This document shows, piece after piece, positions 15,488 to 30,334 of a stretch of 44,917 bases of DNA. Source of the stretch: an uncultured Gammaproteobacteria bacterium (lineage in GTDB: Bacteria; Pseudomonadota; Gammaproteobacteria; Magnimaribacterales; D2472); the NCBI GenBank assembly GCA_964455855.1, contig CAYVYQ010000003.1:1-44917 (forward strand), in the 5' to 3' direction. Position 1 is the first letter of the stretch. Each line of letters begins with the position of its first letter. The notes under the pieces are model-generated. The model ran no database searches. It had not been told where the DNA came from and saw nothing but the letters and a program-made list of their open reading frames with translations. The position numbers and the translations under genes are program-made.

Positions 15488-18400
15488 TTAGAAAGAAAAC
15501 TTATATGTGAAGCCTAGTTGAGCTCTCCATATGCTATTTACAGCTGATTTTCTAATCTCCTTAGGATTGTTTGGATTAAATCTAAATGCATAATCTGCGC
15601 CACCTCTTGAATTAGGGTAGATATATTTAGAGAAGTCATCACTCATTTGCATATCCAAAACATCCACTGTTCCAGTGTAACTACCATACTCAATCACACC
15701 TTTGTCAGAATCAATTAAGTTTAATAAATTCTCTATTCCTAAACTAATAACAAACTCATCATCTGCTCTAAACCCAGGAAGGATTTGTGTAATTTTTAGA
15801 TCTAAAGTTGTTTGCCATGGGTATTCAAATACACCTGTTGGAAGTATCTGACCTGCATATGATTTTAAACCAAGTTGGTTATGTAAAAGATCAAGAACCT
15901 CGTTAGCTACAACTAGGTCTGGAGCTCCATTGCATGAACCCCAACATACATTTGGATCAGTCAAACCTGATGGGATATATAAAAGATGTGCACTGTCATC
16001 ATTAAGATTATTTTCATAACCAAATGCGCGAGTTTGATAACGTGATATTGATCTTTCAAATGTATCCCAAGTATAGGTACCTGGTAAACCAGACTTTCTT
16101 TCAAAGAATAAATTGAAAGTTGTTGGCTTATCAGCTCCAAAGAAATAATGTGTGGAAGACATAGTTGCAAACAGTCTATGCTCTGTTTCATAAATAGATC
16201 GTCCAGCAGTTCTATTATTGAAATCTGAGGCAGCATATTTTCCATAGCTTGAGTTTGCTGTAGTCGAAGCCATACCACTTAACTCATCGATATTTTGATT
16301 TGTATAACCAATAGAAAATGAGCCATCCCCATCATTGAAGAATCTTGAGAATGCAACAGATATTACCTGTCTTTCTCCACCACCTTCATTGTAAAGGCCT
16401 CCTTTATAGGTACCTCTTCCACCAGTTTGGTTGTAAATTGGTCTGCCATCAGGCGCTTTTAAAGCAGGAACCAACGGCTGATCGCCGCTTAATGGAGAAC
16501 CATCGATAATCTTATAAAGGGCTTCTTCTTGCTGAGAATGCAAGTAAGTAGCTGTCATCATCCAATCTCCTATTTGTCTGTCATATGTCAAGTTAAGAGT
16601 TTTGGTTTCAGGCCACTCAAAACTAGGGGCTATGAAATTAATCACAGCATCTGTAAGAGGAGCGTTTTGGATTGCAGTCCCTACACAGCCAGGCAGAGTA
16701 GAAGTAACGTTAGTTAGTGGATCACACCCTGGTGCATTTGCTCCATTATAAGCAGCGATTCTAACTCCATCATTAGTATATGCATTTGAAATCCAAACAG
16801 TAGGCAATTTAGATGAGAAAGTACCATATAAACCTTTCAATGAGCTGACATCATCAATCTCATACTCAAAACTAAATCTATAATTCAAAAGATCAGTTCC
16901 AGCAATACCGCCGTTTGCAAATCCATAAGCATCAACAAAACCTTGATTAAGAGAAGGTGCATCATCAGAATCAAACTCGTCATATCTTAAGCCGACTAAG
17001 ACATTCAATTTGTCTGAAAGCTCTATTTCATCTTGAATATATAGCGATGTTAGATCATATTTGAAGATAGCCGCACCCCCAGCTTCTGTTAGGTCTCTTG
17101 AGTTATTATGAAAAAATGATGTTGCTGTCTGACTTTCATATCCAGAAATTCCATCAAATGAATATGATCCATTTTGAGCAACAATAAATACATTATATAT
17201 ATCCCACTCTTTTGTTTCATAACCAGCTGTCCATTTATGGTTATCATCATAGTAAGTAAGCTTAGCCTTAAAGAAACTATTTTCAGTATCTAGAGCATTT
17301 GCACTTCTAAAGATATCTGGACCTAGTTCACACGAGATTCCTCTCGCTCCACAGTTATCAATCTCAAATGATGGTAGGTTTTGCCCTACTGGGGACATTT
17401 GAGATGTTTTTTGTGTTTTTGTTGAATAGCTGATTTCTGTGATCAAATCATCAGACCAGTTGGAAACAAGTAAAAAACCATCAGTTTCTGTATTTTCACC
17501 TTTTTGATATTCAGCTGAAGAAAAATTAAAAGTTCCATATGAGCTATTAGCTCCATTTAACTTCGAGCTTTCAACCTCTTTGTGATTCAGTGTTAACCGA
17601 TGATTATCCGTGATATTGATATCAAGCCTAGCAGTCATAAATTCTTGCTCAGATTGATTGCTTGAGGTGTATCCAAGAGGATCAAAACCATACTTATCCT
17701 TTGTAATCTGTCTAATTTGATCTACCTCAGCAACTGTAATCCCTTGCTCGTTTGGAAGACCAGAGCCAATAGGACCGTGAGTAATAGGTTTGTTGATTGA
17801 AGCTTCTTCATATGTAACATAGAAGAAAGCTTTGTCTTTGATAATTGGTCCGCCAAATGCAAAACCTTCTGAAGTATCATCTAAATCAAAGGAATACTCA
17901 TCTCCGGCAGATTCATCACCCATGAATGAGTCGCCTCTATCATAGGAAAATAATTCACCAGTAAATTCATTAGTTCCAGACTTAGTGATGACCTCAATAA
18001 CACCACCTCTAAAGCCTGAGTATTCAACAGAGGCTGGAGCAACTTTCACTGAGAGCTGCTCAATTGCATTAAGTGATATAGGGCTTCTTTGAGCTGGATA
18101 GCCATTGTCATTCAGACCAAAATCGTCATTGAAGGAAGTTCCATCTACTCTTAGATCATTGGTTCTAGGATGTGCACCAGCAATTGAAATTGCCTCATAA
18201 TTATCCTCAGCATCATCCAATGAAACCATAGGATTTAATCTTATAAAATCTTTAAGATCTCTGTTTACCGAAGCATTTTGTTCTATATCTTTTGCAGTTA
18301 AGGCTGTGCCAAATCCATAACCTGTATTTAGTGCTGTGCCTGCGCTCGCAACCACAACAACCTCATCGATAGACTCCAAAACAAAATTTAATCTTTTGGT

Positions 18401-18697
18401 ATCACCAACAATTAAAGTTATGCCTGCTGTAGTTTCTGAGCTATAAGCGCTAGATTGGACGCTAACCTCGTATGGGCCGCCAGGCTTAAGACCACCAGCA
18501 TTATAACGACCATTTGCACTGGTTGTTCTTGTGACAGTGGTATCTGTTGGAGTGTAAGTAACGCTAACAGTGGCGCCGCTAACTGGTGTCCCAGCTCCGT
18601 TTGTCACGGTACCTGTAATATCTGAAGTAAGCTCCTGACCAAATGCTGGAATAGCAATTAGGGCAGCAACCATGAAAAAGTTACGCAATGATTTCAT
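15488..18697 (-). CDS. TonB-dependent receptor, Oar-like, with N-terminal carboxypeptidase-regulatory-like domain
   Basis: ITGTVT..G..VSGATV, GLKPGGPYEV, ITKSGTNEF; terminal Phe. Confidence 0.93.
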   Translation of the reverse strand: MKSLRNFFMVAALIAIPAFGQELTSDITGTVTNGAGTPVSGATVSVTYTPTDTTVTRTTSANGRYNAGGLKPGGPYEVSVQSSAYSSETTAGITLIVGDTKRLNFVLESIDEVVVVASAGTALNTGYGFGTALTAKDIEQNASVNRDLKDFIRLNPMVSLDDAEDNYEAISIAGAHPRTNDLRVDGTSFNDDFGLNDNGYPAQRSPISLNAIEQLSVKVAPASVEYSGFRGGVIEVITKSGTNEFTGELFSYDRGDSFMGDESAGDEYSFDLDDTSEGFAFGGPIIKDKAFFYVTYEEASINKPITHGPIGSGLPNEQGITVAEVDQIRQITKDKYGFDPLGYTSSNQSEQEFMTARLDINITDNHRLTLNHKEVESSKLNGANSSYGTFNFSSAEYQKGENTETDGFLLVSNWSDDLITEISYSTKTQKTSQMSPVGQNLPSFEIDNCGARGISCELGPDIFRSANALDTENSFFKAKLTYYDDNHKWTAGYETKEWDIYNVFIVAQNGSYSFDGISGYESQTATSFFHNNSRDLTEAGGAAIFKYDLTSLYIQDEIELSDKLNVLVGLRYDEFDSDDAPSLNQGFVDAYGFANGGIAGTDLLNYRFSFEYEIDDVSSLKGLYGTFSSKLPTVWISNAYTNDGVRIAAYNGANAPGCDPLTNVTSTLPGCVGTAIQNAPLTDAVINFIAPSFEWPETKTLNLTYDRQIGDWMMTATYLHSQQEEALYKIIDGSPLSGDQPLVPALKAPDGRPIYNQTGGRGTYKGGLYNEGGGERQVISVAFSRFFNDGDGSFSIGYTNQNIDELSGMASTTANSSYGKYAASDFNNRTAGRSIYETEHRLFATMSSTHYFFGADKPTTFNLFFERKSGLPGTYTWDTFERSISRYQTRAFGYENNLNDDSAHLLYIPSGLTDPNVCWGSCNGAPDLVVANEVLDLLHNQLGLKSYAGQILPTGVFEYPWQTTLDLKITQILPGFRADDEFVISLGIENLLNLIDSDKGVIEYGSYTGTVDVLDMQMSDDFSKYIYPNSRGGADYAFRFNPNNPKEIRKSAVNSIWRAQLGFTYKFSF

Positions 18698-18797
18698 AAT
18701 TTCCCTCTAAAAAATTAAAATAAAGACGATTATGCAATTCTATACTTGTTTTACTCTGAATAAAAGGAACAATTAAGCAACATTTAATAAAATTTTT

Positions 18798-20046: not shown

Positions 20047-20412
20047 TTAAGTAGTTTTAAATAAAGAATAAGCTAAAAATGTTCCTATCAGACATGAAGC
20101 GATCGATGCTACAACATAGATCAAGGCATTTAATTCCTTACCATTATATAGCAATTCAATTGTTTGCTGGGAGAAGGCAGACATGGTTGTAAAAGAGCCA
20201 AGAAATCCAATAATCAAAAAGAAATAAAGATTAGATTTGAAATCTGAGATTTGAGCCATAGCAATACCAATACAAAAACATCCAATAAAATTAACAAGCA
20301 TTATCCCAGTTGGAAACATAATCAATGAAGAATGTTTCATCAAATCATTGAGGAGGTATCTTAGAGGAGCTCCTAAAGCTCCGCCAAAAGCTATTAAAAA
20401 AAACTTTGTCAT
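20047..20412 (-). CDS. crcB: Fluoride channel Fluc/CrcB
   Basis: GGALGA..RY, VNFIGC, GFLGSFTTMS; position before serS. Confidence 0.93.
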   Translation of the reverse strand: MTKFFLIAFGGALGAPLRYLLNDLMKHSSLIMFPTGIMLVNFIGCFCIGIAMAQISDFKSNLYFFLIIGFLGSFTTMSAFSQQTIELLYNGKELNALIYVVASIASCLIGTFLAYSLFKTT

Positions 20413-20918
20413 AATGGCGTAAGTTCTATTCCATGCTCTACTCCAATGGAGTCTTTATATCGAATAAGATTTAATTTGTTATCTAAAAAAGAGAACGAAA
20501 TTAAATCAGAGCGATTTGTTGAAATAATCTGAAGAGTTGAATCGTCAATCTGGTTTATTGAATATCCTTTAGCGCTTTCATCTATCCCATCAATTAGAAT
20601 GTTAAGAAAAAAGTTATCGATATCATTAATATCAATGATTTGTTTTTGATCTAAAAATACATCATGAATTTCAAGCTTGCCATCCTCAACTCGATAATTT
20701 TCTTCAAACGGAGTTAACACATTAACCGTAACACCTGTCTTGTCAAAAAAGATTTTTCCAGTGGAAGTTTCAATCTTCAGGTCCGATTGGTTGAGTGACC
20801 TCTCAACAAATGAATAATTTTTTTTTAACTCGTTATTAAGTAAGTCTGATGGGTTTGAAGAGGCAGCAGCAAATACTGAAAAATTAAAAGTAAGTATTAA
20901 AAAAAATTTCGTAATCAT
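20409..20918 (-). CDS. lolA: Outer-membrane lipoprotein chaperone LolA (divergent)
   Basis: Signal peptide, beta-rich sequence, directly downstream of ftsK. Confidence 0.7.
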
Positions 20919-23245
20919 TGCTGCTTTGGAACCAAGACTTCTCGACTACCGTTGCTGCCCATTTCAGATACTAAACCTGCCATCTCCATTGCCTCGATAA
21001 TTCTAGCTGCCCTGTTGTAGCCAATCCTGAGTTTTCTTTGTACTGCAGATATTGAAGCTCTTCGAGATTCTATGACAAAACTTACCGCTTCATCATAAAG
21101 CTCATCATTTTCATCAGAGGAATCAGAGTTATCTCCATCAGACCAACCTGGAATTGGTCCTGTCTCTTGTAATTCAGAGGTAATCTCTTCTAAGTAATTT
21201 GGCTCAGATTTCTGCTTCCAACTATCAACAACTCTGTGAACCTCATCATCACCAACAAATGCTCCATGAACTCTCTCTGGCACACCTTGACCAGCTGGTA
21301 AATACAACATATCGCCAGCACCAAGAAGCTGCTCGGCTCCCCCTTGATCGAGAATGGTCCTTGAATCAATTTTTGAAGATACCTGAAAAGCAATTCTGGA
21401 TGGGACGTTAGCCTTGATAAGTCCAGTAATAACATCCACCGAGGGTCTCTGTGTTGCTAAAATTAAGTGGATGCCAGCTGCTCTTGCCTTTTGAGCAATC
21501 CTTGCGATTAAATGCTCTACTTTCTTGCCAACAATCATGATCATGTCTGCAAATTCATCGACAACAACAACAATTGAGGGTAATTCCTCTAGCGGTATCT
21601 CCTCCTCTTCATTAAAAGGGTCTAGTAAAGGTGTGCCAGCCGCGTTAGCCTCAGCTACCTTTTGATTAAAAGCTGTCAAACCTCTAACACCCATTTCTGA
21701 CATTAATTTATATCTTCTATCCATTTCAGCAACGCACCACCTAAGCCCATTGGATGCGTCGGTCATATCAGTAATAACAGGAGTGAGGAGATGCGGTATA
21801 CCTTCGTATACTGAGAGTTCTAATATTTTTGGATCTATCATAATCAAACGTACTGCTTCTGGATCAGACTTGAACAATAGACTCAGCAACATAGCATTTA
21901 AACCAACAGATTTTCCTGACCCGGTTGTACCTGCTACAAGCAAATGAGGCATTTTTGCCAGATCAACTACTATTGGTTTTCCAGCTATATCATGACCCAG
22001 TGCCATAGATAAAGGCGAACTAGAGTTATGGAAAGTTTCAGAAGAAAGAATTTCTGTCAGTCGAACCATCTTTCTGTTGGTATTAGGTATTTCGATACCA
22101 ACAACTGATTTTCCTGGAATTACCTCAACCACCCTAACGCTCATGACTGCAAGAGATCTTGCTATATCTTGAGCGATATTTGTAATCTTGCTAGCCTTAG
22201 TGCCTGGAGCAGGTTGAATTTCAAATCTAGTTACAACTGGCCCAGGAATAACAGAAACAACTTTTGCCTCAACTCCAAATTCTTGCAGCTTAATTTCAAG
22301 CCTATCTGCCACTTCATCGAGCTGCTCTTTCGTAAGGGATGAGCCATCATCCAGCACTCTATCAAGAAGGTCTGTTGAGGGCATCTCTGAATTTACATTT
22401 TTTTCTTTAGGCTTGTAAACCGTTGATGTAGCCACTGATTCACTTTTAGGTGTGTCAGTTTTTGGTAACGGTTTAGAGACCTCTTGTGATTTAGTTTGTG
22501 TTTGAACTCCAGCTTGAGTTGATTTAGGTAGATTTAATTCCCTGGGTTTAGGCTCAATAACAGAACGTTCAACTAAGGGCTCATCCTTAGATTTAAGTTT
22601 TGATAAATCAATAGATTTCAAAGCATTAAGTAAGAATTTAAGCAGCCGAGTAAATTGAGCGCTAATCTCCAAAATTAGATATCTAGCTCCATTGCCAAGA
22701 GCATCAATAATGGATAACCAGGAGAATGAAAAGGTTAAAGAGATCGATACTAAAAAGAAAATTACTATAAAAATTAGAGAGCCAACAATTCCAAAAATAT
22801 TTGAAAGATTAGTAAAGATCAATGCACCCACCAGGCCGCCAGATGAAGATTGAGGAAAATAATCACCAGAATAATAAAATTCACACAATGCAGAAAATGA
22901 AGAAAGCAAGACAAGTGCTGAGGTAACTTTAATAACTTTATGAGTGTTATCAGATGGTTGATAAAAAAATAACTGCTTCACAGCAACAAATGACATAACC
23001 AACAAAAATAAATATGCACCTATGCCAATAACTGAAAATAAGGCATCAGAAAGATAAGCCCCAAAAGGTCCACCAAGGTTTTCTATTGAGCCAGATAGTG
23101 AACTGATTGATGAGAGACTTGGATCAAGTGAAGAATATGAAACAAGTGATATAAAAATATATAAAACTGAGCCAAGGCAAAAAAATGCAAAAACATTTTT
23201 CAGGGTGCCAGCTGATAAATTTGATTGCTCTGGTTTTTTAACGAT
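20915..23245 (-). CDS. ftsK: DNA translocase FtsK; start extended to a probable ATC at 23245
   Basis: Walker [18 protein letters not shown], gamma domain IGYNRAARI; frame stays open upstream of TTG 23005 and encodes SY..DPS...[12 protein letters not shown] of the FtsK membrane domain; AGGAG at 23256-23252. Confidence 0.95.
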
Positions 23246-23303
23246 GATTAACTCCTGTTATCGATATTATATTGAGATATAGCTTATTTAGTATAAAAGA
23301 TAA

Positions 23304-24272
<969 letters not shown>

Positions 24273-26884: not shown

Positions 26885-27226
<342 letters not shown>

Positions 27227-27240
27227 TTAAGGAGATTAAT

Positions 27241-28521
27241 ATGGAAGAAATGAAATTTGCATTAGATACTTTCTACGCAATTATGTCAGGAGCATTGGTC
27301 ATGTGGATGGCTGCTGGATTTACCATGCTTGAAGCAGGCTTAGTCCAAAAGAAAGATGTTTCTGAAATCGTCACTAAAAACCTAGGTTTGTTTTCTATAG
27401 CATGCGTCATGTACCTTGTTTGTGGTTTTGTTCTCATGTACCCCGCTGAACCTGTCCTTGCTATCTCTGGTGGATTAGATGAGGCTGGTGAAGCTATTCT
27501 ATATGGAATCTTACCTGCCATCGGAACATCCTGGGGTCTTAGCACTGACATGCCTCTTGAAGAAATAGGTATGGCTTATGCGATGGATTACTCCCAGCAA
27601 GCTGACTTCTTTTTTCAGGTGGTGTTTGTTGCAACTGCTATGTCAATTGTTTCAGGTGCTGTAGCTGGAAGAATGAAGTTAATACCTTTCTTTATTTTTA
27701 CAGTTATCCTGACTGCGTTCATATACCCTGTTCAAGGATACTGGAATTGGGGTGGTGGTTTTTTAAGTACCCTTGGTTATTCTGATTATGCGGGCTCTGG
27801 CACAGTTCACCTTCTTGGTGCTGCTGCAGCGCTGGGAGTTGTAACTTTGCTTGGTGCTAGAAATGGAAAATATGGCTCAGACGGGTCTATCAACCCTATG
27901 CCAGGATCTAATATTCCTTTAGCTGCTTTAGGTGTTCTTATCTTATGGCTAGGTTGGTTCGGTTTTAATGGTGGTTCAGAGCTTGTAATTAGCGATGAAG
28001 CAAGCGCAATTGCTGTTAGCCAAGTTTTCATGAACACAAATATGGCTGCCGCTGGCGGTGTTATTGGTGCTCTAGTTTTAAGTTTAGCTCTCACTGGAAA
28101 AAGTGATGTCACAATGGTGATTAATGGAGCTATTGCTGGATTGGTAGCTATAACTGCTGGACCAAGCGCTCCAAGTGGAGGAGAGTCAGTGATTATTGGT
28201 TTTCTTGGTGGGTTATTGGTCTATGCATCGATTCTTTACTTTGACTCAAAATTAAAAATTGATGATCCAGTAGGCGCAATATCAGCTCATGGAATCGTGG
28301 GTATCTTTGGGGTGATGGTGGTTCCATTCACAAATACTGAAGCAACATTTTTAATGCAATTTATAGGTGTACTATCTATTGCTGGATTTGGTTTCATTGC
28401 AAGTTACGGAGCTGTCTATGTAATTAATATGTTTATGCCTATCAGAGCAACAGATGAAGAGCAGGCCTTGGGGCTTGACGCTTCTGAAATTGGAGTTGAA
28501 GCATATCCAGAGTTTAAATAA
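27241..28521 (+). CDS. amt: Ammonium transporter (Amt, non-AmtB subfamily)
   Basis: MAAGFTMLEAG, FFQVVF, DYAGSGTVH, GWFGFNGGS, DDPVGAISAHG. Confidence 0.96.
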   Translation: MEEMKFALDTFYAIMSGALVMWMAAGFTMLEAGLVQKKDVSEIVTKNLGLFSIACVMYLVCGFVLMYPAEPVLAISGGLDEAGEAILYGILPAIGTSWGLSTDMPLEEIGMAYAMDYSQQADFFFQVVFVATAMSIVSGAVAGRMKLIPFFIFTVILTAFIYPVQGYWNWGGGFLSTLGYSDYAGSGTVHLLGAAAALGVVTLLGARNGKYGSDGSINPMPGSNIPLAALGVLILWLGWFGFNGGSELVISDEASAIAVSQVFMNTNMAAAGGVIGALVLSLALTGKSDVTMVINGAIAGLVAITAGPSAPSGGESVIIGFLGGLLVYASILYFDSKLKIDDPVGAISAHGIVGIFGVMVVPFTNTEATFLMQFIGVLSIAGFGFIASYGAVYVINMFMPIRATDEEQALGLDASEIGVEAYPEFK

Positions 28522-28533
28522 TTAACTCTTCCT

Positions 28534-28564
28534 GATAACCGCCGACATCCAGTTGGCGGTTATC
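28534..28564 (+). terminator. Stem-loop after the first amt (probable terminator, weak U tail)
   Basis: GATAACCGCCGAC-ATCCA-GTTGGCGGTTATC, 13-bp stem with one G-U pair. Confidence 0.7.
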
Positions 28565-28565
28565 T

Positions 28566-28623
28566 TGCATCCAACCGGTGCACAAAGTTTAAGACGCAAC
28601 TTAAATTTCCCCAAAATAGTTCA
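28566..28623. promoter_or_regulatory. NtrC-type binding sites
   Basis: TGCATCCAACCGGTGCA (28566-28582) and weaker TTCCCCAAAATAGTTCA (28607-28623) versus consensus TGCACCA-N3-TGGTGCA. Confidence 0.65.
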
Positions 28624-28640
28624 AAATAGCCATTATAAGT

Positions 28641-29032
<392 letters not shown>

Positions 29033-29047
29033 AAAATAGGAGAAAAA

Positions 29048-30334
29048 ATGAAATTATTTAATATCTGTCTTGTTATATTTACCACCCTTCTTTCTCCAAC
29101 GCTGCTCTCGGCAGAGATTAACTCTGGAGACACAGCATGGATTCTTACAGCTACTGCCCTAGTTCTGTTTATGACCCTTCCAGGGTTGGCGCTATTTTAT
29201 GGTGGGCTGGTAAGAAATCAGAATATTTTGTCTGTTCTTATGCAGTGCTTTGCTATTTGCTGCATCGTGTCTGTTATTTGGGTCATCTACGGTTATAGCC
29301 TAGCTTTTACGGGTGCTGGCTCCATTATTGGTGGGACTGATGCCCTTTTCTTATCAAGCCTGATGAGAGAATCTGCTTCAGGCACTTTGCCAGAGAGTTT
29401 ATTTGTTGTATTCCAAATGACCTTTGCAGTGATTACCCCTGCGTTAGTTGTAGGAGCATTTGCAGAAAGAATGAAGTTTAGTGCCATGTGTATATTTACT
29501 GTACTTTGGGTAACTTTAGTTTACTTGCCAGCCTGCCATATGGTTTGGGGCGGCGGTTATCTTGGAAGCATAGGGGTTATTGATTTTGCAGGTGGATTAG
29601 TGGTTCACGCTACTTGTGGAATTGGTGCTTTAGTTGCTGCAATGATGCTGGGACCAAGAAAAGGTTTTCCTGGAGGATCACTTGTGCCTCATAACAGACC
29701 AATGGTAGTAATGGGTGCGGCTATGCTTTGGGTAGGATGGTTTGGATTTAATGGTGGAAGCGCTGTTGCCGCAGACTCTAGTGCCGCTATGGCTATTCTT
29801 GTTACTCACATCAGTGCAGCTGTTGGAGCTTTGACTTGGATGTCAGTGGAATGGATCAAAACAGGTAAGCCAACAGTTGTAGGTATAGCCACCGGCATGG
29901 TTGCCGGGCTAGCCACGATAACTCCTGCATCTGGAACAGTTGGACCTCAAGGTGCATTATTGATTGGATTATTGGCTGGTTTGGTTTGTTTCTATGCAAC
30001 TCAACTAATTAAAGGTTACTTTAAAATTGATGATTCTTTAGATGTTTTTCCAGTTCATGGAGTTGGGGGTATCTTAGGAATTCTCATGCTAGCTTTTGTT
30101 GGGAAGCCAGATGGATTCCTTGGAGCAGGAGCAGCTGGATTTGATCCAAGTGTCTTTGAACAATTTATGATTCAACTTCAAGGTGTTGTGGTTATATGCG
30201 CTTGGACTCTTGTCTTTTCTTGGATTGCCTTAAAGATTACATCATTCATGGCTGATTTAAGAGTGAGCGATGAAAATGAACACGAGGGTTTAGACTTAAC
30301 TGAGCATAACGAAAGTGCATATCACACGAACTAA
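29048..30334 (+). CDS. amtB: Ammonium transporter AmtB
   Basis: Signal peptide, SGDTAW, PGLALFYGG, DFAGGLVVH, GWFGFNGGS, DDSLDVFPVHG. Confidence 0.97.
   Translation: MKLFNICLVIFTTLLSPTLLSAEINSGDTAWILTATALVLFMTLPGLALFYGGLVRNQNILSVLMQCFAICCIVSVIWVIYGYSLAFTGAGSIIGGTDALFLSSLMRESASGTLPESLFVVFQMTFAVITPALVVGAFAERMKFSAMCIFTVLWVTLVYLPACHMVWGGGYLGSIGVIDFAGGLVVHATCGIGALVAAMMLGPRKGFPGGSLVPHNRPMVVMGAAMLWVGWFGFNGGSAVAADSSAAMAILVTHISAAVGALTWMSVEWIKTGKPTVVGIATGMVAGLATITPASGTVGPQGALLIGLLAGLVCFYATQLIKGYFKIDDSLDVFPVHGVGGILGILMLAFVGKPDGFLGAGAAGFDPSVFEQFMIQLQGVVVICAWTLVFSWIALKITSFMADLRVSDENEHEGLDLTEHNESAYHTN

Follow-up and report, generated by a model that had tools for sequence, protein, structure and literature searches.

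The division and chromosome-segregation gene ftsK probably initiates at a non-canonical ATC codon in a 44,917-nt stretch of DNA from an uncultured gammaproteobacterium (GTDB lineage Bacteria; Pseudomonadota; Gammaproteobacteria; Magnimaribacterales; D2472; GenBank assembly GCA_964455855.1, contig CAYVYQ010000003.1, positions 1 to 44,917 of the forward strand). This whole stretch, with a G+C content of about 37%, is referred to here as the window. Two ATC triplets stand in tandem behind a complete Shine-Dalgarno (SD) core at the 5' end of the gene, and the same arrangement occurs in 16 relatives of the SAR86 cluster, none of which has a canonical start codon between the upstream in-frame stop and the ATC pair. 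Comparison of these sequences strongly favors initiation at one of the two triplets, the second of which (ATC 23245) is the probable start. An ATC start behind a strong SD had been proposed for this gene in an earlier note made from the letters of the window alone, and the proposal withstood the tests that the note itself had named as able to refute it. FtsK residues and codons are numbered from ATC 23245 throughout.

Reading frame and 5' end of ftsK

The stop-to-stop frame of ftsK extends over positions 20915..23257 of the minus strand (780 codons). At its 5' end the minus-strand text reads, 5' to 3', TATAAT (23271-23266), five bases, TAA (23260-23258) and then CAG GAG TTA ATC ATC GTT AAA AAA CCA. 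The upstream text given in the earlier note (TATAAT...AGGAG-TTAATC-ATC-GTT, with the SD 6 nt before ATC 23245) was correct on rereading, and its observation that the frame runs from 23257 to TTG 23005 without any ATG, GTG or TTG agrees with the sequence, with the listing of open reading frames (ORFs) and with the matching translation. A start at TTG 23005 would yield a protein of 696 aa; the next canonical codon is ATG 22996.

The length of this start-less run is, by itself, no rarity. ATG, GTG and TTG account for 706 of the 14256 in-frame codons of the window genes, the probability of an 84-codon run without any of them is 0.014, and such runs are found empirically in 276 of 10603 windows of 84 codons. 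What goes beyond chance is its position and conservation, since the run is sited at the 5' end of the gene, a conserved domain begins inside it and the ATC-ATC pair is kept in 16/16 relatives. Among ORFs of at least 90 aa, ftsK shows the largest offset between the upstream stop and the first canonical start in the window (84 codons, vs. 36 for the next). Hidden non-canonical starts elsewhere in the window were not indicated: no other ORF has an offset above 36 codons, and NCBIfam coverage hints at no further truncated N-terminus.

Identity of the product and its membrane domain

The predicted protein carries all the domains expected of an FtsK/SpoIIIE translocase with a four-helix membrane anchor. 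Besides the N-terminal FtsK_4TM domain (Table 1), these are the alpha domain (PF17854, FtsK_alpha, residues 288-388, E = 2e-32), the ATPase motor (PF01580, FtsK_SpoIIIE, residues 396-603, E = 2.4e-75) and the C-terminal gamma domain, a winged helix that reads the FtsK orienting polar sequences KOPS (PF09397, FtsK_gamma, residues 712-772, E = 1e-26). The earlier note had assigned the stretch upstream of TTG 23005 to the N-terminal membrane domain of FtsK, and the profile match at residues 15-184 bears this out. For the anchor to be complete, translation must begin at the ATC pair or close to it: hydrophobic stretches lie at residues 14-40, 63-95 and 136-183, and a product begun at codon 81 (TTG 23005) would be without helix 1 and some of helix 2, with loss of FtsK_4TM profile positions 4 to ~70.

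The domain order (4TM, linker, alpha, motor, gamma) is that of the canonical gammaproteobacterial FtsK of the Escherichia coli type, from which the window protein differs in having a far shorter linker and an ATC start instead of ATG. In E. coli, ftsK starts with ATG and is transcribed from an SOS-inducible promoter. The score against the E. coli-type equivalog (NF007615, PRK10263) stays below its cut-off (715.5 vs. 1566 bits), with a match confined to residues 279-773; the low score reflects the much shorter linker (776 aa vs. a profile of 1355 positions) and is no argument against FtsK identity. The nearest relatives at the protein level bear the label SAR86 cluster or Gammaproteobacteria bacterium.

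Conservation of the start region among SAR86 relatives

Species-representative genomes were scanned with the first 230 residues of FtsK, which recovered at least 18 loci (L001-L018). L001-L016 belong to SAR86 single-cell genomes or metagenome-assembled genomes (MAGs) and are 64-85% identical to the window protein over its N-terminal part; L017 and L018 are distant, SAR86-like relatives (41-45%). The window together with L001-L016 forms the set of 17 sequences used below.

All 17 read AGGAG-NNA-ATC-ATC-G, with AGGAG and AATCATCG invariant throughout. An in-frame stop lies one to five codons upstream of the second ATC in every one of them, and no canonical start intervenes between this stop and the ATC pair. 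The earlier note had proposed that sister genomes be checked for ATG, GTG or TTG at the start position; ATC was found there in 16/16 relatives instead. In three of the 17 sequences (L011, L012 and L014) a TAA is placed immediately 5' of the first ATC, so that nothing but the ATCs or later codons could serve as the start. The later codons do not agree with one another: six genomes have their first canonical start at codon 10 (TTG), one at codon 12 (ATG) and three at codon 15 (TTG), while in the remaining seven it falls at codons 69, 73, 81, 89, 89, 111 and 113, and no start-capable downstream position is common to all 17. Thus in the window and six other genomes a canonical start is missing between the upstream stop and the conserved coding sequence, and in the other 10 the first one (codons 10-15) is even so preceded by conserved codons. 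The ftsK frames are intact in 17/17 and comprise 766-777 codons.

The pattern of conservation downstream of the ATC pair is that of translated sequence. Of the 79 codons from 2 to 80, 48, 61 and 5 have an invariant base at positions 1, 2 and 3, respectively; for the 13 codons from 2 to 14 these counts are already 6, 8 and 1. As judged from these counts, the codons from right after the ATC pair onward bear the signature of selection on protein, which excludes an untranslated leader or a pseudogene.

The ATC triplets themselves are kept beyond what the coding of Ile would explain. In a control alignment of the 17 full-length genes (pairwise protein identity 0.77-0.99, median 0.84), 35 internal columns are Ile in all sequences. 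The codon is the same throughout in one of these, where it is ATA; no such column is fixed for ATC, which is also the rarest Ile codon (148 of 1016). More generally, of 487 conserved columns with degenerate codons only 17 retain a single codon, and variation is seen at every one of 166 fourfold-degenerate sites. Two adjacent ATCs that stay fixed while other Ile codons drift point to a constraint other than Ile coding: the proposed start is ATC in 17/17, vs. none of the 35 Ile columns.

A quick maximum-likelihood tree of 19 FtsK proteins places the 17 ATC genomes in one clade (SH-like approximate likelihood ratio test, SH-aLRT, 100), parted by long branches from L017 and L018, the mutual placement of which is unreliable. 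In these two outgroups ftsK starts with ATG (around position 2470-2500), has no GGAG within 90 nt upstream and encodes a shorter N-terminal tail. The weak codon and the strong SD co-occur in this sample of 19 loci, and the transition between the two combinations (ATG and no SD, ATC and a strong SD) took place on the long branch between L017/L018 and the 17-genome clade.

Table 1. Positions of ftsK, its start region and the divergent neighbor in the window.
Feature	Position	Strand	Evidence or remark
ftsK coding sequence, as proposed	20915..23245	-	776 codons from ATC 23245 plus stop 20917-20915; open frame, Pfam domains, coding-type conservation of codons 2-80
FtsK_4TM membrane domain	22694..23203	-	PF13491, residues 15-184, profile 4-171 of 171, E = 5.6e-32, 111.2 bits vs. 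cut-off 23.1
TTG, ftsK codon 81, first canonical start	23003..23005	-	Gene-caller view; within second hydrophobic stretch
CTG, ftsK codon 15, rival start, rejected	23201..23203	-	CTG 6, TTG 4, TTA 4, CTA 2, CTT 1 of 17
Second ATC, proposed initiation codon	23243..23245	-	Invariant 17/17; 6 nt after AGGAG
First ATC, alternative start or conserved spacer part	23246..23248	-	Invariant 17/17; 3 nt after AGGAG
Shine-Dalgarno core AGGAG	23252..23256	-	Invariant 17/17; two of the next three bases vary; full AGGAG in only 7/42 other window genes
In-frame TAA closing the ftsK frame upstream	23258..23260	-	Sequence; in-frame stop 1-5 codons before second ATC in 17/17
TATAAT, -10-like hexamer	23266..23271	-	Within invariant block ATATCTCAATATAATA
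trxB, divergent neighbor	23337..24272	+	NCBIfam TIGR01292, 384.9 bits vs. cut-off 343.45

The trxB-ftsK intergenic region

The 91 nt between trxB and ftsK (23246-23336) are conserved to an unusual degree, with 48/91 positions invariant in the 17 genomes and a mean identity to consensus of 0.93. The -10-like hexamer TATAAT (23271-23266) would set the 5' end of the ftsK mRNA near 23259 and leave a leader of ~13-15 nt. A promoter and terminator scan of 23150-23450 returned two promoter-like sites where 1.5 were expected, neither of which is this hexamer; it went uncalled because no -35 hexamer reached 4/6. The only Rfam match on either strand of 22900-23500 was SAM-II on the plus strand (18 bits vs. 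a gathering threshold of 44, E = 0.97), taken as noise, and the RNA of 23262-23186 folds with -10.3 kcal/mol (z = -0.20), which gives no structured leader.

The region also holds an inverted repeat, AAGATA-N17-TATCTT, which might be a regulator site. Compared with the 16 relatives, one nucleotide is missing from the window ~48 nt upstream of the second ATC. On the trxB side, a TATAAT at 23325-23330 of the plus strand lies 6 nt before ATG 23337 with no SD-like core, and is conserved in the 16 SAR86 relatives; this placement suggests that the trxB mRNA is leaderless or nearly so. An out-of-frame upstream small ORF, from a TTG ~60 nt upstream to a TAA over ftsK codons 2-3, was considered as a coupling device and rejected, since the TAA is missing where codon 2 is GCA (L008, L009) and the TTG lies upstream of the -10-like hexamer.

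Choice between the two ATC codons and other explanations

Within the tandem, the second ATC is the better placed. Seven other genes of the window have a full AGGAG, at a spacing of 4-7 nt from the start, and in ftsK this spacing is 6 nt to the second ATC, i.e., a near-cognate codon at a working distance from the SD, and just 3 nt to the first. A more distant relative known at the protein level only (P0096, with 65% identity in the part that aligns to the first 260 query residues) has Asn at the position of the first ATC and Ile at that of the second. A start at ATC 23248, with a protein one residue longer and the second ATC as a constrained second codon, is unlikely in view of this spacing and of P0096, even though both ATCs are invariant in 17/17, the frame opens exactly at the first ATC in L011, L012 and L014, and spacing rules are perhaps loose in an organism in which 27/42 window genes have no SD-like core. 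The invariance of the first ATC might instead stem from added pairing with the 3' tail of 16S rRNA beyond the core SD. On balance, the spacing and the relative make ATC 23245 the likelier start of the two, at a lower confidence than that attached to the pair as a whole.

Starts further downstream, at CTG 23203, TTG 23005 or ATG 22996, would turn the upstream open frame into an untranslated leader. TTG 23005 is the first canonical codon of the frame, and gene callers picked such sites in relatives (762, 720 and 693 aa); CUG is a near-cognate codon with 1-2% activity in E. coli (10.1101/063800). Such a leader would have to accommodate the coding-type conservation of codons 2-80, which is evident already within codons 2-14. 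Codon 81 sits in a hydrophobic helix, and a start there removes profile positions 4 to ~70 of FtsK_4TM. CTG 23203, which the earlier note had named as the site that could displace ATC, turned out in the 17 sequences to be a variable Leu codon and not a conserved start: codon 15 is CTT, CTA or TTA in 7/17. A downstream start is therefore very improbable. Still less can be said for an ATC that arose by sequencing or assembly error, or in a decaying pseudogene that lost its ATG. ATC is one base away from ATG and the window is a single sequence, but the identical ATC-ATC recurs in at least 16 independent assemblies (single-cell genomes and MAGs), the 17 frames are intact and under strong purifying selection, and the window protein has all four FtsK domains. 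The relatives' ATC-ATC and intact frames refute error and decay for practical purposes.

It is also conceivable that AATCATC is kept mainly as a nucleic-acid element, for example one to which a regulator binds or one that extends the pairing with the 3' end of 16S rRNA, and that initiation there is incidental. The invariance of 48/91 intergenic positions, vs. 0/166 fourfold sites, speaks for such an element, as does the exclusive use of AUC over AUU or AUA, which otherwise lacks an explanation. The conservation is, however, patchy in the manner of a translation start: the gap between TATAAT and AGGAG and two of the three bases after AGGAG vary, while AGGAG and the ATCs are fixed. A start codon is needed in any case and there is no other candidate, and neither the Rfam search (best E = 0.97, on the other strand) nor the folding (z = -0.20) revealed an RNA element. 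We consider a primary role as a nucleic-acid element to be quite unlikely.

Several points nevertheless weigh against initiation at ATC 23245 as set out above. We infer ATC initiation from the exclusion of other starts and from conservation. The unusual conservation of the intergenic region means that another constraint (an operator, or extended 16S pairing) could explain part of the invariance of ATC-ATC. The 17 sequences were taken from among the matches listed and do not amount to an exhaustive census. Of the 42 window genes, 15 have an SD-like core no more than 13 nt from their first canonical codon, which was taken as the start, and 27 have none; both the sparse use of SD and the assumed starts weaken the argument from spacing. 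In 10/17 genomes a TTG or ATG at codons 10-15 would, if used, keep all four helices, which makes a downstream start conceivable in those genomes. Finally, a simple weak-start model does not explain why AUC is used without exception, given that AUU and AUA work about equally well in E. coli (10.1101/063800).

Public annotation of ftsK in relatives

None of the 25 public protein records of ftsK relatives that were examined starts at the ATC. Most of them are short by 4 to 83 residues, often with one or two membrane helices missing, which bears out the expectation in the earlier note that gene callers truncate this gene. Records of 762 aa start at codon 15, others at codons 5, 6, 10, 12, 31, 43, 58 or ~70, and many are truncated to 747, 740, 734, 720, 708 or 693 aa. 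For instance P0079, which represents a cluster of 84 member sequences and shows 99% identity to the window protein in the part that aligns to the first 260 query residues, has 693 aa and starts at ATG codon 84. The record of P0096 is extended in the opposite direction, from an upstream ATG, and reads through the ATC site. As a consequence, the domain and topology predictions for ftsK in marine gene catalogs will be wrong.

Possible function of the ATC start

That this SAR86-clade ftsK has no alternative start, that its SD and ATC are conserved and that the upstream 80 codons are under purifying selection is observed directly; the codon used, the N-terminal residue, a low output and a dependence on initiation factor 3 (IF3) are what we infer from it. 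In the proposed sequence of events, ribosomes would be recruited by the invariant AGGAG, and the initiator tRNA (fMet-tRNA) would pair with the near-cognate AUC at 23245 or, less likely, with the AUC three bases upstream. The product would be a 776-residue FtsK with a short Lys-rich cytoplasmic tail before the first of its four membrane helices. Since AUC works poorly as a start codon and is discriminated against by IF3, FtsK synthesis would be kept low and would vary inversely with IF3 activity, rising when IF3 is limiting, and the strong SD would partly offset the weak codon.

ATC is already listed among bacterial start codons. To our knowledge, conserved and selectively maintained non-canonical starts are known for very few bacterial genes, chiefly infC. 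In E. coli, initiation at AUC reaches 1-2% of that at AUG, or 0.02-3% when other constructs are used, with Met at the N-terminus of the product (10.1101/063800). Non-canonical start codons are rejected by IF3, and infC, which encodes this factor, is autoregulated through an AUU or AUC start (PMC5499595). Like the SAR86 ftsK, infC keeps a non-canonical AUH start across species, and as IF3 disfavors the infC start, infC output depends on the level of IF3 (PMC5499595). The two cases differ in that the product of ftsK is a DNA translocase for division and chromosome segregation and not IF3, so that no autoregulatory loop would arise; infC is absent among the genes of the window.

A further comparison is offered by pcnB of E. 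coli (poly(A) polymerase I), the non-canonical start of which probably limits the supply of an enzyme that could do harm. Its AUU is one of two confirmed non-canonical starts in E. coli (10.1101/063800). As a gene other than that for IF3 with a non-canonical start, pcnB resembles ftsK, but the codon (AUU vs. AUC), the gene and the known breadth of conservation differ. By analogy with these cases, the chances are about even that the ATC start serves to keep FtsK low. That the invariant AUC behind a strong SD constitutes a dedicated IF3-sensing switch, tying the supply of FtsK to the translational state of the cell, is a more speculative and rather unlikely extension of the same analogy.

Other genes of the window

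Downstream of ftsK lie an ORF of 169 aa, crcB and serS. The 169-aa ORF (20409-20918, minus strand) has an ATG that overlaps the ftsK stop and gave no Pfam or NCBIfam match; its position after ftsK is the one that, we presume, lolA occupies in many Gammaproteobacteria. A gene pair for a P-II nitrogen regulator and an ammonium transporter occurs twice in succession at 26885-30334 of the plus strand; one of the transporters belongs to the "marine subtype" (TIGR03644, 553.7 bits), its counterpart is AmtB-like. The second P-II ORF, called from TTG 28652, probably starts at an ATG 14 codons in, because its profile match begins only at residue 15. Two large TonB-dependent receptor-like outer-membrane proteins are encoded at 28-2652 and 15488-18706 (minus strand), the latter (1069 aa) with an N-terminal carboxypeptidase-regulatory-like domain.

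Significance

A search of open-access papers and preprints found no published report linking ftsK or SAR86 to a non-canonical start. Here a cell-division gene retains AUC across a clade of SAR86, an abundant marine lineage, and the stop directly before the ATC pair in three genomes makes for unusually clean comparative evidence. If the IF3 switch were real, ftsK would join infC as the second conserved gene of a regulon that IF3 controls through start codons, in the setting of a streamlined marine bacterium with few transcription factors. The gene lends itself to testing whether an organism with a streamlined genome controls the translational set point of a membrane-anchored DNA pump that is potentially harmful.

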